Of a stretch of 64,000 bases of DNA, positions 4,420-64,000 are shown in pieces. A program made the position numbers and the translations under genes. The stretch is from NCBI GenBank assembly GCA_037190785.1, contig JBBCJN010000007.1, positions 109,952-173,951 on the forward strand, in the 5' to 3' direction. Below the pieces are notes generated by a model. That model saw nothing but the letters and a program-made list of their open reading frames with translations, was not told the DNA's origin and ran no database searches. The stretch's first letter is position 1; each line of letters opens with the position of its first letter. This DNA is from Pedobacter sp. (lineage in GTDB: Bacteria; Bacteroidota; Bacteroidia; Sphingobacteriales; Sphingobacteriaceae).

Positions 4420-5766
4420 TTAAAAGATACCGGTATAGTTAAAAGGGCTAATGTTTTTCAATTCTGTCTTAAGTTCCTCTGAAATATTCAGTCCATCGAT
4501 GAATTGAGCCATGGTCTCACTGGTAATTTTTTCATTGGTTCGCGTCAGTTCTTTAAGCGCCTCGTAGGGGTTTGGATAAGCTTCCCGTCGCAACACTGTC
4601 TGGATGGCTTCCGCAACAACAGCCCAATTTTGTTCCAGATCGGAACGAATGGCATCTTGATTTAAAAGAAGTTTGTTCAGCCCTCTGAGGGTTGATTGAA
4701 TAGCGAGCAGGCTATGCGCTAAAGGAACGCCTACATTTCTTAAAACAGTCGAATCAGTGAGGTCTCTCTGAAGACGGGATATAGGGAGTTTTGCAGCAAA
4801 GAACTCAAAAAGAGCGTTAGCTACTCCGGCATTTCCCTCTGCATTTTCGAAATCGATCGGATTGACTTTATGGGGCATGGCAGAAGAACCGACTTCCCCT
4901 GCTTTTATTTTTTGTTTAAAATAGTTTTTGGAAATATAAGCCCATACATCTCTATCCAGATCGATCAGAATATTGTTTATTCGTTTAAGGGCATCACATT
5001 GCGCAGCAAACTGATCGTAGTGTTCAATTTGGGTTGTATGTTGAGCACGGTTCAATCCCAAGCGGTCATTGACAAAATGATTGGCAAAAGAAGGCCAGTT
5101 AATGGCCGGGTAGGCAAGGTGATGAGCATTGAAATTGCCTGTTGCCCCTCCAAATTTGGCACTGTTGGGAATGCTAAAAAGTTGTTTCGTCTGAATCTGT
5201 AAACGGTCTGCAAAGATGAGGAACTCCTTTCCTAATTTAGTAGGAGAGGCAGGTTGACCGTGGGTATAAGCCAACAAAGGTATTTCTTTCCACTCTTCAG
5301 CAAGGGAATGGATTTTTTCGATTAATTCGTTGAGGGCGGGTTGGTAAATCTGGTTTAAACCTTCTTTAAATGAATAAGGGATAGCGGTATTATTAATGTC
5401 TTGGGAGGTAAGTCCGAAGTGGATAAATTCCTTAAAGGTACTCAGGTGTAGTTCATCAAAACGGGCCTTCACGAAGTATTCTACAGCTTTTACGTCGTGA
5501 TTGGTAATCCGTTCAGTAGCTTTTACCTCTTCCGCATGCGATTCATTGAAGTTTTCATAAATGGCCCGAAGTGTCGGATAGTGTGTCTTGTCAAAATTCT
5601 CGAGTCCTGGGAGCTTAATTTCACAAAGCTCAATGAAATATTCGATCTCAATAAAGACCCGGTACCTGATAAGGGCATATTCAGAAAAAAAATCAGCAAG
5701 AGATTCAGTGTTTTTTCGGTAACGCCCGTCGACTGGTGAAATGGCTTTTAGAGGAGATAAATTCAT
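4420..5766 (-). CDS. purB: Adenylosuccinate lyase
   Basis: AISPVDGRY, TNHDVKAVEY, THGQPASPT and the fumarate-lyase signature GSSAMPHKVNPIDFEN. Confidence 0.96.
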   Translation of the reverse strand: MNLSPLKAISPVDGRYRKNTESLADFFSEYALIRYRVFIEIEYFIELCEIKLPGLENFDKTHYPTLRAIYENFNESHAEEVKATERITNHDVKAVEYFVKARFDELHLSTFKEFIHFGLTSQDINNTAIPYSFKEGLNQIYQPALNELIEKIHSLAEEWKEIPLLAYTHGQPASPTKLGKEFLIFADRLQIQTKQLFSIPNSAKFGGATGNFNAHHLAYPAINWPSFANHFVNDRLGLNRAQHTTQIEHYDQFAAQCDALKRINNILIDLDRDVWAYISKNYFKQKIKAGEVGSSAMPHKVNPIDFENAEGNAGVANALFEFFAAKLPISRLQRDLTDSTVLRNVGVPLAHSLLAIQSTLRGLNKLLLNQDAIRSDLEQNWAVVAEAIQTVLRREAYPNPYEALKELTRTNEKITSETMAQFIDGLNISEELKTELKNISPFNYTGIF

Positions 5767-5885
5767 GAAAATTTTGTTTTTCGCAAAGTTACTATTAATC
5801 TCCCATTTTTAAAGACATGGGTGAAATGAACTCGTTGCTAATTACTGGAAAAGAAAGTAAATTTTTTAGGAAAAAGGATGTAAAC

Positions 5886-5917
5886 TAAAAAAGGAGATCC
5901 CGGGATCTCCTTTTTTA
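5886..5917. terminator. Perfect 32-bp palindrome, probable intrinsic terminator
   Basis: TAAAAAAGGAGATCCC/GGGATCTCCTTTTTTA, 22 nt downstream of the small lipoprotein stop. Confidence 0.8.
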
Positions 5918-5939
5918 TAATGTGCTATTTGCGATCAGA

Positions 5940-6107
5940 CTAGTGAGCAGCAGTATCAGCAGCAGTAGTATCCACAGCTACAGTGTCAACAGCTACAGTA
6001 TCCACAGCTACAGTATCAGTACCTTCAGATTTGTTTTCTGAGTTACAAGCAACTACTGATAAAGATAAAGCTAACGCTAAAAAGCCAAGTTTGAAAAAGT
6101 TTTTCAT
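5940..6107 (-). CDS. 55-aa lipoprotein with DTVAV repeats (below ORF-track cutoff)
   Basis: Hand translation: MKNFFKLGFLALALSLSVVA-CNSENKSEGTDTVAVDTVAVDTVAVDTTAADTAAH*. Has a signal peptide with lipobox VVA-C, an upstream promoter and a downstream terminator. Confidence 0.85.
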   Translation of the reverse strand: MKNFFKLGFLALALSLSVVACNSENKSEGTDTVAVDTVAVDTVAVDTTAADTAAH

Positions 6108-6154
6108 TCTAATTTTCTGTTTAAATAATTAATTAATTTTACATGTTAATACTG

Positions 6155-6185
6155 CAAAGGTAAAAAGGTAACCCTCATAATCGAA
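6155..6185 (-). promoter_or_regulatory. Bacteroidota housekeeping-type promoter for the small lipoprotein
   Basis: Minus strand TTCG-N19-TACCTTTG matches the -33/-7 consensus TTTG...TAnnTTTG. Confidence 0.6.
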
Positions 6186-6421
6186 AAAAAGTTAAAATAT
6201 TTTTGATCTCTGTCTGAAGCCAATGAATTTTTCCTTTTTATTCCATAGACAAAATAAGTGCAATACGGATCCGTTACAGAAGGGAATGTTTTTCTACAAA
6301 GTGCCTGGAAAGACTCTTTTCGAAAGGCTTGGTTTTCGTAGTAAGTAGCGTAGAAATATTCGTATAGAATTTTTTTTTTGGTTATCATTGGGTTACTATT
6401 CCATCATAAAGGTATTAATAA

Positions 6422-6994
6422 GTGAGCAACAAGTTAAGCAGTTCAGTCCCAAGCGATAGAGAGGTGGTGTTGGGTATCCTGAATCATTCGAACGAAGTGT
6501 TGAATAGATTGTATACGGGTTATTTTCCGATGATTTTACAATTTATTCTCCATAATAACGGAGATGAAGAGGATGCGAAGGATGTTTTTCAAGAGGCCAT
6601 CATTGTCTTGTATGACAAAGTGCGTGCTGGAGATTTTGAACTGAGTAGCAAGTTAAAAACCTATTTGTATTCGGTAAGCCGGAGGATATGGTTAAAAAAG
6701 TTAGCGCAGCAGCATCGGAAGTCGGATAATATTGCAGATTTTGAAGATGTACTTTTAGTGGAGGAGGATATGGAGCAGCATGAACAAAAGGATCTTCAGT
6801 TTCATAAGATGAAGCGTGCGATGGAAAGTTTGGGAGAACCCTGTCACACAATTATAAAGGATTTTTATATCCACAATTTATCTATGCAGGATATCTGCGA
6901 AAAGTTCGGTTATACGAATACAGACAATGCTAAAACGCAAAAGTATAAATGCCTGCAAAGGCTTAAACGGTTATTTTTTCAATCATCGTCATGA
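6422..6994 (+). CDS. ECF RNA polymerase sigma factor
   Basis: GTG start; sigma2 DAKDVFQEAIIVLY...LKTYLYSVSRRIW and sigma4 LSMQDICEKFGY...KTQKYKCLQRLK. Confidence 0.9.
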   Translation: MSNKLSSSVPSDREVVLGILNHSNEVLNRLYTGYFPMILQFILHNNGDEEDAKDVFQEAIIVLYDKVRAGDFELSSKLKTYLYSVSRRIWLKKLAQQHRKSDNIADFEDVLLVEEDMEQHEQKDLQFHKMKRAMESLGEPCHTIIKDFYIHNLSMQDICEKFGYTNTDNAKTQKYKCLQRLKRLFFQSSS

Positions 6995-8085
6995 GGAATG
7001 AGATCGCTTTAGAATCTATTATTGAAGATTACCTGAAAGGCAAACTAAGCCCGGAGGAAACCCACGCTTTTGAACAGTTGAGAGCCAGTGATCCTAGCGT
7101 GGATCACCGCGTAGTCACCCACATGGTTTTTCTGGAATCTATGAAGCAATATGCGGAAGTACTCCAGTTAAAAGAGCAGATGGATGCAGCCCATCAACAA
7201 CTGGATGTCGAGACCCTCAGCACTCGTTTGCGCCCTCACCGCTCTAAAATAGTGAGGTTATGGCAAAGCAATCGCTCTGCCATCGCCATTGTCGCATCCT
7301 TTTTGTTTTTTTCTCTGATTGTGTTTTATTCACATCGCAGCCAAACCAAACAGGAGGGAACGTTAAAGTTGCTGAGCGGAGAAGTTTCCAAGATCAAACA
7401 CTCACAAAGCACGCTCATCCGAAAAGTAGACAATACCGCGAAGAATTTTTCGGAGAATAGCCCCGCTGCACGATTCAGTGGCAGTGGTTTTGCCATCGCT
7501 AGCAACGGATATATTCTCACAAATTACCATGTAATTAAAGGCGCCGACTCCGTTTATATTCAAAATAGTAAAGGTGAGTCTTTCCGGGTAAAAGCATTTT
7601 ACACAGATCCCATTAATGACATTGCGATTTTGAAAATTAATGACCTGTCTTTTAGCAATCTTGGCTCGTTACCTTACAGCATCCGTAAAACAGGGACCGG
7701 CATTGGAGAGCAGGTTTATACCCTCGGTTATCCGAAAGACGACGTGGTGCTAGGAGATGGATATGTTAGCTCTAAAACGGGAATGAATGGCGATAGCCTC
7801 GCTTATCAGGTAGCTATTCCCGTTAACCCGGGCAATAGCGGAGGACCTTTGTTAGACAACCATGGAAATATTGTCGGGGTGATTAATGGAAAGGAAAATA
7901 AAACCGATGGGGCCGCATTCGCCATTAAATCTAAATACATCATCGAAGCGCTGAATGCCATTCCTCAGGATTCTCTCCAACGGAAAGTTCCTTATGGAAA
8001 ACGAAGTCAGCTTCAGGGACTAAAAAGAAATAAACAGGTCGAAAAAATACAGAGTTATGTATTTATGATCAAGGTATATAAATAA
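6991..8085 (+). CDS. Membrane-anchored trypsin-like (S1C) serine protease with anti-sigma-like N-terminus
   Basis: Triad motifs TNYHV / DIAILKI / GNSGGP, one TM (AIAIVASFLFFSLIVFY), N-terminal IEDYLKGKLSPEE...FEQ helix; 4-nt overlap with sigma gene; no PDZ seen. Confidence 0.85.
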   Translation: MRNEIALESIIEDYLKGKLSPEETHAFEQLRASDPSVDHRVVTHMVFLESMKQYAEVLQLKEQMDAAHQQLDVETLSTRLRPHRSKIVRLWQSNRSAIAIVASFLFFSLIVFYSHRSQTKQEGTLKLLSGEVSKIKHSQSTLIRKVDNTAKNFSENSPAARFSGSGFAIASNGYILTNYHVIKGADSVYIQNSKGESFRVKAFYTDPINDIAILKINDLSFSNLGSLPYSIRKTGTGIGEQVYTLGYPKDDVVLGDGYVSSKTGMNGDSLAYQVAIPVNPGNSGGPLLDNHGNIVGVINGKENKTDGAAFAIKSKYIIEALNAIPQDSLQRKVPYGKRSQLQGLKRNKQVEKIQSYVFMIKVYK

Positions 8086-60333: not shown

Positions 60334-60364
60334 TGCCCGTAAAGTTCTTTTTTATTTCTTTATC

Positions 60365-60527
60365 AACCGAAAGAGGTTACACCGCAACGTGTATTAAAAG
60401 GGAATCGTGTGTAAATCACGAGCTGTCGCGCAACTGTAAGTAACAGGAAAGGTATTTATTAAGAGCATTCACTATCTGTTGAGGAGGGGAAAGGTCATAA
60501 ATACGGTTACAAGTCAGATACCTGCTT
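60365..60527 (+). ncRNA. Cobalamin (B12) riboswitch
   Basis: GGTT-ACAC/GTGT hairpin, AAAAGGGAA, TCGTG-TGTAAAT-CACGA T-loop hairpin, GCTGTCGCGCAACTGTAA, GTAAC/GTTAC and GTATTTAT/ATAAATAC stems, CACT...GGGAAAG, AAGTCAGATACCTGC. Confidence 0.9.
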
Positions 60528-60617
60528 TTTTCGAGTGGACGATGCTTTCGCGATTTGAAGCTGGAGTCAGGTAGAGGTGATTTTGTAGAGGAGCCATTCT
60601 CTTGCTAAATCCAGTTT

Positions 60618-60645
60618 AGAGGATGTGCATATCCTTTTTTCTTCT
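60618..60645 (+). terminator. Candidate attenuator terminator in riboswitch expression platform
   Basis: AGAGGATG-TGCA-TATCCTTT stem with G-U pairs followed by a T/C-rich tract. Confidence 0.4.
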
Positions 60646-60856
60646 CTGTTTCTATTTTTCATGTCGGCATTGTGAAGCAAAAAGGAACATTTGCCGGTTA
60701 CACCATGCTGTAATCACTAACGGGCGATGCTGGAATAACCGTTTCATTGATCAAAATGCTATAGCGGATGGTTAATTAAATGGTAAAACAGGCTAATCAC
60801 TGTTCATTCATCAGCCTGAAATGTACATATAAAGATAGACTATTTAAAAAACAGAA

Positions 60857-61891
60857 GTGGAAGGTCCCGGGATTTTCCACCTCAAAAGGATCAACAGATT
60901 TGTGGAGAATTTAAAGGTTACAGCGGGTATAGCTGCCATTGGAGGATATGTGCCTCCTGCGATTTTAACTAATCAGCAATTGGAAAATACACTGGATACC
61001 ACCAATGAGTGGATTGTTTCAAGAACGGGTATTAAAGAGAGACATATTCTCAAAGATCCTTCCATGGCTACTTCAGATATGGCTGCGCTGGCCATTCAGA
61101 ATTTGTTAACTCACTACGGTGTGGATCCTTTAACGGTGGAATGTTTGATTTTGGCCACTTCAACCCCCGATTACATACTCTGTCCAACGGCCGGCATTGC
61201 CTGTGAGAAAGCAGGCTTATTAAACGCTTGGGGTTTTGATATGAATGCTGCCTGTAGCGGCTTTCTCTATGCCTTATCCATCGCAGCAGGTATGATCGAG
61301 AGCCAAAGACATCAACGAGTGCTTGTTGTAGGGGCCGATCAGATGAGTACGATTGTCAATTATGAGGACCGAAATAGTTGCATTCTGTTTGGTGACGGGG
61401 CAGGAGCTGTTTTATTGGAAGCACGTACGGATGGACATGGAATTCAAGAAAGCCTTTTCAGAACAAACGGAAAAGGAGCATCGTCACTGTATGTCCCTGC
61501 AGGCGGATCAGCGATGCCATTATCTCTGGAGGTACTTAACGAAAAGAAACAGTTTATCCATCAGGATGGTAGAACGGTTTTTAAGGAGGCCATTCGGAAC
61601 ATGAGTGCAACCAGTGAGGAATTACTTGACAAAGCAGGGATTTCCCCGACACACATTAATTGGGTTGTGCCTCACCAAGCAAATCTGCGTATAATAAAAG
61701 GTGTAAGCGAAGAAATTGGCATTCCGATGGAGAAATTCAAGGTAAATATCGAACGCTATGGGAATACCACTGCAGCGACTCTCCCATTGTGTCTCTGGGA
61801 TTTTAAAAATGACTTCAAAGAAGGGGATTATGTGTTGTTGACTGCGTTTGGAGCAGGCTTTAATTGGGGGAGTACCCTGATGAAATGGTAA
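60857..61891 (+). CDS. fabH: Beta-ketoacyl-ACP synthase III (FabH paralog)
   Basis: WIVSRTGIKERH, NAACSGF (Cys), PHQAN (His), YGNTTAA (Asn), AFGAGFNWG; GTG start at 60857 or 60902. Confidence 0.93.
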   Translation: MEGPGIFHLKRINRFVENLKVTAGIAAIGGYVPPAILTNQQLENTLDTTNEWIVSRTGIKERHILKDPSMATSDMAALAIQNLLTHYGVDPLTVECLILATSTPDYILCPTAGIACEKAGLLNAWGFDMNAACSGFLYALSIAAGMIESQRHQRVLVVGADQMSTIVNYEDRNSCILFGDGAGAVLLEARTDGHGIQESLFRTNGKGASSLYVPAGGSAMPLSLEVLNEKKQFIHQDGRTVFKEAIRNMSATSEELLDKAGISPTHINWVVPHQANLRIIKGVSEEIGIPMEKFKVNIERYGNTTAATLPLCLWDFKNDFKEGDYVLLTAFGAGFNWGSTLMKW

Positions 61892-61932
61892 CGGTTTTTT
61901 CAAAAAAAGCAAAACTGGACAAAAGGAAATCA

Positions 61933-62150
61933 ATGGATATCCGAAGAGAAAAACTGTCTTCTGCTGAGGGAGGGAAACGTTTATTGTTGCATTCTTGGTG
62001 TGCTCCCTGTTCAGGAGAGGTCAGGTAGGCTATCATCGCCGCTGAAATTGAATTTACCCTCTTTTTTTATAACCTTAATATCCATCCCAGAAAAGAGTAT
62101 GAAATTCGCAAGGAGGAGAACGTCAGATTTGCTGAGAAACATCGTATTCC
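61933..62150 (+). pseudogene. queH: Epoxyqueuosine reductase QueH (DUF208) 5' fragment with in-frame stop
   Basis: Hand translation from ATG 61933: [72 protein letters not shown]. Resembles QueH HSCCAPCSGEVMEA...FYNPNIHP..EY..RKEEN.RFAEKHGIP; TAG at 62026-62028; truncated near 62150. Confidence 0.85.
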
Positions 62151-62323
62151 ATCACTCACCACGTATCCCTTCTAAGGAAGAAATGGTACAACTTCTTCAA
62201 AGGGCAAAAGCCATTATTCCGGAAGATCAGCTTTGGGTAAATCCGGATTGTGAACTTAAAACCAGGCATTGGGATGACACACAAAAAGCCCTTAAAGCGA
62301 TGGTAGAAGCCGTGCCTTTGTGA
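62151..62323 (+). pseudogene. metE: Cobalamin-independent methionine synthase MetE 3' fragment
   Basis: [40 protein letters not shown]...ALKAMVEA matches the MetE C-terminus (HSPRVP...LWVNPDCGLKTR); only about 57 codons remain. Confidence 0.88.
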
Positions 62324-62365
62324 CATCTCGGCGTATGAAAGTGAACTTTTAAAAACACCTGTCTT

Positions 62366-62402
62366 AAAATACCGGATCGGCTAATTCCTGTTCCGGTATT
62401 TT
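62366..62402. terminator. Hairpin between metE remnant and convergent pdeM
   Basis: AAAATACCGGA...TCCGGTATTTT. Confidence 0.65.
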
Positions 62403-62443
62403 TGGGGATAATCCAAAAACCATGGACCCCATCCGGTTCAATA

Positions 62444-63079
62444 TTAAATGCTGATTATTTGCTGAGGAGTAATGGCAAATACCCGGTCACTGGCAGTTGG
62501 TTGAATTAATTTTAGACCTGTAAAATGACTGAAAGCAGGTAAAATGGCGTATTTTTCACCGAAATAGAAGCAGGGTAACCGTAGGCGCTGTTTTACCTTG
62601 TTGGAGATTAGGACACCAGGATGCAGGTGACCGCTAATGGGATACAAATCTGAAAAACTATTTTTTGCATCATGGACAAAACAGAATGGTTCCATTTGAA
62701 AGCTAGGTTCAAATACCTCGATCCGCATGTCTTTGTAAACAGTTTCGTGTTGCCTGTCGTGGTTGCCTTTCACCAGTATAAAGCGGATTTCTCTCCAGCT
62801 CTCTTTCCATCGGCCGAACTCGGCGATTTCCTCGTTCCAGTCACTATGGAACATGTCTCCGTTGATCACTAGGGTATGGGGCTGGTAGTGGTCAAGCAAA
62901 TGGGATAAACGTTGAAGATCTTTTTGAGCTACCTGGTCGGGGATCGCGATTCCCGCTTTACGAAAATGGGCTGCTTTTCCTAGGTGAAGGTCACTAATCA
63001 CCAATACCCGTCTTTCCGGGAAATAGAGGGCTCTTTCAACGTCTAAAATAAGCTGCTCAGATCGGATGGAAATTTTCAC
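62444..63079 (-). CDS. pdeM: Ligase-associated DNA damage response endonuclease PdeM (metallophosphoesterase)
   Basis: ISDLHLGKAAHFR, NGDMFHS, KGNHDR, SGHLHPG, LPAFSHFTG. Confidence 0.88.
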   Translation of the reverse strand: MKISIRSEQLILDVERALYFPERRVLVISDLHLGKAAHFRKAGIAIPDQVAQKDLQRLSHLLDHYQPHTLVINGDMFHSDWNEEIAEFGRWKESWREIRFILVKGNHDRQHETVYKDMRIEVFEPSFQMEPFCFVHDAKNSFSDLYPISGHLHPGVLISNKVKQRLRLPCFYFGEKYAILPAFSHFTGLKLIQPTASDRVFAITPQQIISI

Positions 63080-63122
63080 TTTACAAAAATAAGGATTTCA
63101 GGATTGAGAATGTGCCTCGCGG

Positions 63123-63998
63123 CTATTTGAATAGTTCTTTCTTCATACGCTCAATTCGTTTTTCTAACTCCTCAGAGCTCATGGTGGCTCTTAAACTGTC
63201 CACTTTGATGGGAAAGGAAAGGGGGGTAAATCTTTTGGGATAGGTAAGAATGATGTTGCTGTGCTGAATTCTCTGTAATGCGGCTATCAGACGGGGCTCA
63301 TCCAGCTGTTGGTAAAAAACTTCCTCATACGCCTGCCGGAGGAGGAGGTTGTGAGCGTCAAAATCACGGAACACATCGAAAAATAGTCCGGAGCTGGCTT
63401 GTAAATGTTTGTTGCTTACATATTTGCCGGGGTAGCCCTGAAATACCAGCCCTGAGATACAGGCAATGTCCCGAAATTTTCTTCGAGCCATTTCGGTAGA
63501 ATTGATGCTTCGCTGCATGTCTTCATTTAGGTTTTCCGGAGAAAAGATAGCGTAGGCGATGGCATCGTCCATTGGAATTTCGACATCACTGAGCAATTCA
63601 AAACCATAATCATTCATAGCGATGGAAAAAGTAATTGGCAGGAGTTTACTTAGACGATAAGCGACAAGTGCTGCCATAATTTCATGGATCAACCTTCCTT
63701 CGAAAGGGTAAGCAAACAGATGGAAACCCTCTCTGTTGGAGATCATTTCTATTAATAGTTCATGACTTTGAGGTACATGAGAGCGTTCCTTCTGTGTTAA
63801 GAATAAAGGATATACGGTGTGGAGTTCCTCATCCAGATGATTCTTCTCCAATACTTCATTGTATTTTTTGCGAAGGACTTCACTTAGGTTGGATGAAAGG
63901 GGTAGTCGGCCACCCAGCCAGCTCGGCGTAATTCCTTTCTTCTGCTTACTTTTTCGGACGATGACCGTCATCTCCTTAAGTTGTATGAACTCCAGCAC
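63123..63998 (-). CDS. Ligase-associated DEXH-box (Lhr-like) helicase, 3' part (5' beyond window)
   Basis: WLGGRLPLSS, YPFEGRLIHE, NDYGFELLS, EMARRKFRDIACISGL, PKRFTPLSFPI; upstream of pdeM. Confidence 0.88.
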   Translation of the reverse strand: MLEFIQLKEMTVIVRKSKQKKGITPSWLGGRLPLSSNLSEVLRKKYNEVLEKNHLDEELHTVYPLFLTQKERSHVPQSHELLIEMISNREGFHLFAYPFEGRLIHEIMAALVAYRLSKLLPITFSIAMNDYGFELLSDVEIPMDDAIAYAIFSPENLNEDMQRSINSTEMARRKFRDIACISGLVFQGYPGKYVSNKHLQASSGLFFDVFRDFDAHNLLLRQAYEEVFYQQLDEPRLIAALQRIQHSNIILTYPKRFTPLSFPIKVDSLRATMSSEELEKRIERMKKELFK

Positions 63999-64000
63999 CC

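Follow-up and report, generated by a model that had tools for sequence, protein, structure and literature searches.

The window, a stretch of 64,000 nucleotides of Pedobacter DNA (C7:109952-173951 of a draft genome of 3.69 Mb in 12 contigs, 98.5% complete), carries the beginning of a queH gene joined directly to the end of a metE gene, on the same strand and out of frame. This abutment supports the proposal of a first-pass annotation that the locus is a deletion-type fusion relic of the two genes. The relic is very probably non-functional, the product of an illegitimate deletion that joined a second queH copy to a full-length metE in a redundant locus formerly repressed by B12. Such a deletion would have fused queH codon 73 out of frame to metE codon ~708, and would have taken the rest of both genes along with anything in between. 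Since the relic ends a gene string headed by a predicted cobalamin riboswitch, it would be the trace of a former B12-repressed locus for B12-independent enzymes, and this locus may have been free to decay because of redundancy, with a riboswitch-controlled queH and mesX-mesD elsewhere in the genome, metH, queG and a BtuB-like receptor. The relic is ordinary decay of a redundant locus and not a new vitamin dependence; its regulatory context is modestly interesting.

Layout of the relic and its flanks

The features of the region, with window coordinates, are as follows.

60357..60543, plus strand: predicted cobalamin riboswitch aptamer (Rfam RF00174, 75.8 bits against a gathering threshold of 31.5, E 9e-18, full length 1-189)
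60899..61891, plus strand: intact accessory fabH paralogue, likely GTG start at 60899 (longest ORF from GTG 60857)
61933..62152, plus strand: queH' remnant, codons 1-73 plus one base (Pfam PF02677 positions 1-59 of 175, E 6e-15)
62000..62323, plus strand: 107-aa ORF with a GTG start, open across the queH'/'metE junction
62152..62153, plus strand: junction, ...CGTATTCCAT joined to CACTCACCACGT..., with a +1 frame change and microhomology of at most ~1 nt
62153..62323, plus strand: 'metE remnant, last 56 codons plus TGA (62321-62323), in the next frame relative to queH'
62366..62403, no strand assigned: hairpin with A-run and U-run flanks between the convergent 'metE and pdeM (MFE -20.2 kcal/mol, z = -3.6)

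Three-frame translation of 61880-62400 showed that the queH' frame starts at ATG 61933 and is closed by a TAA at 62172-62174, 7 codons past the junction. The 'metE remnant matched NCBIfam TIGR01371 at positions 695-748 of 754 (E 2e-20, 73 bits) and the Pfam MetE catalytic domain at positions 268-321 of 324 (E 9e-18). It corresponds to residues 708-763 of the 771-aa MetE on contig L176 of a bioreactor metagenome, which carries the closest MetE C-terminus (87% identity) among 5.8 billion proteins; the identity to L176 MetE is 85-87% in protein and 80% in DNA. The beginning of the MetE frame, first estimated at about 62150, was refined by comparing the flanks with the genome's own intact queH, with both genes on L176 and with several relatives, which places the junction between 62152 and 62153. 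When 234 further genomes of the genus were searched at the DNA level, all queH matches ended by query base 250 and all metE matches began at or after query base 261 (window 62152), and none ran across the queH'-'metE junction.

The 107-aa ORF had been read as a queH::metE chimera, and frame translation together with the PF02677 and TIGR01371 matches confirmed this: residues 1-51 are queH' DNA read out of frame, while residues 52-107 are the MetE C-terminus. It is by accident that the ORF stays open across the junction. Downstream, the fold stability of the hairpin was reached by none of 200 shuffled sequences; it is probably the retained, bidirectional metE terminator, which suggests that metE has kept its native 3' end. 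The gene string in the window hence reads riboswitch-fabH-queH'-'metE-terminator.

The fabH gene within this string was described beforehand as intact, and it is. Its product is full-length and scores above both family cut-offs (NF006829, 373 bits against 249; TIGR00747, 321 bits against 292), with the Cys, His and Asn motif contexts of FabH visible in the translation. Its identity to the housekeeping fabH at C3:1083105-1084091, part of a plsX-fabH-accBC cluster on contig C3, is 51%. Among 5.8 billion proteins the best match reaches no more than 70% identity, and no orthologue above 58% was found in relatives; neither queH nor metE was seen near the closest FabH homologues, in a Pedobacter MAG and a Flavobacterium.

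On the other side, an operon for PdeM phosphoesterase, Lhr-type helicase, ATP-dependent ligase and exonuclease converges on the relic (window 62444-64000 and beyond). This operon with pdeM is the ligase-associated DNA damage response. Its synteny with relatives stops at pdeM, on whose left side 12 relatives have nothing in common with the window.

Lesions in the two fragments

The three queH lesions listed in the first-pass annotation (HSWC, R-stop and NLN) are all present, each at a residue invariant in 80 of 80 homologues. They are C22W at 61996-61998 (HSCC to HSWC), M31R followed by an in-frame TAG in codon 32 at 62026-62028, and P48L at 62074-62076 (NPN to NLN). Altogether seven queH' changes fall on positions invariant in 80/80 homologues, namely L10S, P11A, C22W, M31R, E32stop, S37A and P48L; the 80 QueH loci were gathered by similarity to the remnant, so that invariance at unchanged positions is partly ascertainment, while the changed positions are unaffected. 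The remnant lacks the full-length open-frame domain of ~175 positions that marks the epoxyqueuosine reductase QueH (PF02677), and the conserved cysteine motif HSCCAPC reads HSWCAPC.

The 'metE fragment has decayed on its own account. The change from DCGLKT to DCELKT noted earlier was found as G34E at 62252-62254 (NPDCGLKT to NPDCELKT), at a position that is Gly in 120/120 homologues; the conserved Cys beside the mutated Gly is the MetE zinc ligand. None of the 120 best homologues has K17R, G34E or E42D. After MVEA 4 residues follow, compared with the usual 10-17 in homologues, and the fragment falls short of the two-domain protein of ~750 residues scoring above 930 bits that defines MetE in TIGR01371. 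No internal frameshift was found in either queH' or 'metE.

Substitutes elsewhere in the genome

From the fusion it had been concluded that the strain lost two B12-independent enzymes. This is not supported. For queH, an intact copy lies at C1:135124-135768 (214 aa, PF02677 positions 1-174 of 175, 213 bits); for metE, no second full-length copy was found in the genome. The genome-wide check proposed with that claim, for metH, queG, another queH and btuB, was answered throughout: queG is intact, metH is an open frame of 1236 aa (1743 bits), queH is intact and a BtuB-like receptor is present. Contig C1 also carries a predicted alternative to MetE in two genes.

C1:137949-138953: MesX (PF08908, 562 bits)
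C1:139005-140039: MesD (NF006589, 673 bits, cut-off 392)

MesD and MesX together make methionine without cobalamin or 5-methyl-THF, and oxygen is required (Price et al. 2021, PMC7857596). As in this core methionine synthase, the C1 pair is adjacent and above the family cut-offs, with MesD above its own and the DUF1852/MesX gene next to it, so that it should provide a B12- and folate-independent methionine synthase. The expected reliance on B12-dependent MetH and QueG, or on methionine uptake, is contradicted by intact queH, queG and metH plus MesX/MesD in the same genome.

The mesXD pair lies outside the window, at the place where L176 has metE, and is preceded by the same divergent asnC regulator and riboswitch. 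Judged from this gene order, mesXD on C1 looks like a non-orthologous replacement of metE. Of 24 sampled genomes of the genus, 19 have an intact MetE and 2 a broken one; MesX is confined to the present genome and G019, both of which have MesD and no MetE. Comparison of C1:139005-141066 with the G019 locus L180 gave 93% identity for MesD and 89.5% for a neighbouring membrane protein, while MesX is only 63% and PdeM 47% identical between the two genomes. Judged by this mosaic of identities, some of the mesXD block may have moved laterally.

Cobalamin riboswitches

The aptamer in the window passes the covariance-model test of RF00174, and its DNA identity to the riboswitches in the metE leaders of the genus is 74-78%. 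It scores lowest, and may be decaying, among five predicted cobalamin riboswitches in the genome, which lie upstream of

the BtuB-like TonB-dependent receptor
the intact queH
mesX-mesD
a 4HBT thioesterase (C2)
the relic string.

Where a cobalamin riboswitch governs metE, the B12-independent synthase is repressed by B12, and in most relatives the riboswitch directly precedes metE. The present genome differs from that system, as the window riboswitch now heads fabH and a dead fusion, and the intact C1 queH and mesXD are each headed by a cobalamin riboswitch of their own. Only one sub-lineage (own C1, G198 and G110) showed a riboswitch upstream of queH, and 22 other queH loci tested had none; in the literature searched, no report of a riboswitch-controlled queH was found.

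Between the aptamer and the likely fabH start lie ~355 nt (60544-60898), about twice the pre-metE leader of relatives. No remnant of metE, of the L176 genes or of any other gene was detectable there, and comparison of aptamers did not reveal the parent leader of the window riboswitch. On the same genome's C2 (506943-507881), 274 nt separate a cobalamin riboswitch from the 4HBT thioesterase that follows it, and the collinear site in most same-genus genomes reads riboswitch-metE-4HBT. Compared with these, the C2 site looks like the orthologous metE slot, cleanly emptied, and would be a second trace of metE loss.

Likely ancestral layouts and size of the proposed deletion

Two relatives offer models for the undeleted state. 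L176 reads queH-ADDT-4HBT-asnC(-)-riboswitch-metE, and its queH and metE share one strand with 2.3 kb between them; measured from breakpoint to breakpoint, the deletion on this model is 4,868 bp. In G198, a MAG of the same genus, a riboswitch is followed by queH and, after 95 nt, by a metE relic that decayed independently, with residues ~163-252 fused to residues 707-770.

L194 (G198:C255), about 5496-7079, reverse strand: metE-relic locus of G198

From these layouts the deletion would amount to at least ~2.6 kb by the adjacency in G198, or ~4.9 kb by the L176 model. The size of roughly 2.5 kb given in the first-pass annotation, estimated from typical gene lengths, thus holds only as a lower bound, the relatives' layouts giving about 2.6-4.9 kb, or conceivably more. 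The exact undeleted layout riboswitch-fabH-queH-...-metE was found in no genome; likewise, adjacency of queH and metE was seen in none of 18 metE loci of the genus and none of the 80 closest queH loci. Typically in the genus, queH sits upstream of yceD-plsX-fabH.

The 3' metE piece of G198 starts within ~6 nt of the breakpoint in the window. Third codon positions are saturated between the two pieces (44% identity), so the events are independent, and the near-identical breakpoint may reflect a hotspot or chance.

Origin of the second queH copy

By queH identity, the orthologue of the L176 and G198 loci is not the relic; it is the C1 locus. The QueH of G198 is 92.5% identical to that of C1, and between C1 and L176 the identities are 85% for QueH and 74.5% for AsnC. 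The C1 locus is arranged like those of G110 and G215, and on C1 mesXD takes the place of metE. The queH' remnant itself is 67% identical in DNA to the genome's own intact queH and 70.5% to the queH of L176. Its identity to homologues at codon positions 1, 2 and 3 is 77, 85 and 49%, a pattern indicating that most of its divergence arose while it was a working gene. Divergence gained in such a phase suggests that queH' was an old paralogue or a foreign copy rather than a recent duplicate. A recent duplication of the intact queH was considered and rejected, given the DNA identity of only 67% and the saturated third positions. Homologues of the QueH fragment above 78% identity were not found, and the single context viewed was unrelated; base composition gave no sign of foreign origin.

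On C1, the region after the intact queH (C1:135790-136978) holds an ADDT-like gene broken into two frames (135793-136131 and 136143-136529) and, of 4HBT, only a shortened stretch of similarity at 136730-136978. These pieces are probably further pseudogenes of the same locus.

Alternative explanations

That the junction arose in several steps, or by a tandem duplication or translocation that joined queH to metE with a later loss of the flanking copies, is unlikely. In its favour, the metabolic region has been rearranged repeatedly: in G016 and G002 the order is riboswitch-metE-fabH-4HBT, with fabH after metE, the reverse of the window; the genome's own metE slot on C2 is empty (riboswitch, 274 nt, 4HBT); and the C1 locus has mesXD instead of metE. 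A multi-step origin, however, takes at least three events, and a single deletion would be enough. The two fragments lie right against each other on one strand, queH then metE, as in L176 and G198, and the metE terminator hairpin is retained in place. With the undeleted layout not found and synteny left of pdeM not conserved, a single deletion is inseparable from a tandem-duplication junction or from successive events by layout.

An assembly artefact, in which separate intact genes were wrongly joined, is very improbable. Apart from the draft state of the assembly, with its 12 contigs, the evidence opposes it: each fragment bears its own decay (a stop and seven changes of invariant residues in queH', G34E and a shortened tail in 'metE), the junction is interior to a 412-kb contig, and the genome holds no donor, its other queH being 67% identical in DNA and another full-length metE missing. 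Selection on the 107-aa ORF, or on the C-terminal 56 residues of MetE, as a functional small protein can be given scarcely any credence. It draws on G198, which independently keeps nearly the same metE 3' piece (start within ~6 nt), also in an open frame across its junction. Yet the N-terminal half of the 107-aa ORF is out-of-frame queH, the MetE tail of 56 residues lacks most of the catalytic barrel and has Glu for the invariant Gly next to the conserved Cys, and a junction-spanning match was absent from 234 genomes of the genus. Decay after a single deletion stays the preferred account of the relic.

Significance and regulatory context

Deletion-derived fusion pseudogenes in shrinking genomes likewise consist of same-strand fragments joined out of frame, with later point lesions and substitutes elsewhere, and the present genome is small for its genus, at 3.69 Mb compared with mostly 4.6-6.9 Mb. 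Among fusion pseudogenes the relic is usual in kind, and it stands out only for uniting two B12-independent isozymes under a cobalamin riboswitch. A single pseudogene is poor ground for concluding vitamin dependence, and the relic itself is of little weight because working replacements exist; it would mark the replacement of MetE by MesX/MesD in a small-genome lineage.

Through the predicted riboswitches upstream of queH, B12 supply may bear on which epoxyqueuosine reductase is used, and riboswitch control of queH, if true, would add a member to the B12 regulon. More tentatively, and with the odds somewhat against it, an ancestral operon can be pictured in which one cobalamin riboswitch repressed the QueH (queuosine) and MetE (methionine) back-ups together, plus FabH. 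The sub-lineage would then switch between QueG and QueH, and between MetH and MetE (or MesXD), by B12 supply, and the near-identical metE breakpoint of G198 could mark a deletion hotspot. In two other species of the genus, G003 (L043/L027/L029) and G002 (L044/L026/L030), metE is split into two open frames, which points to repeated damage of metE in the genus.
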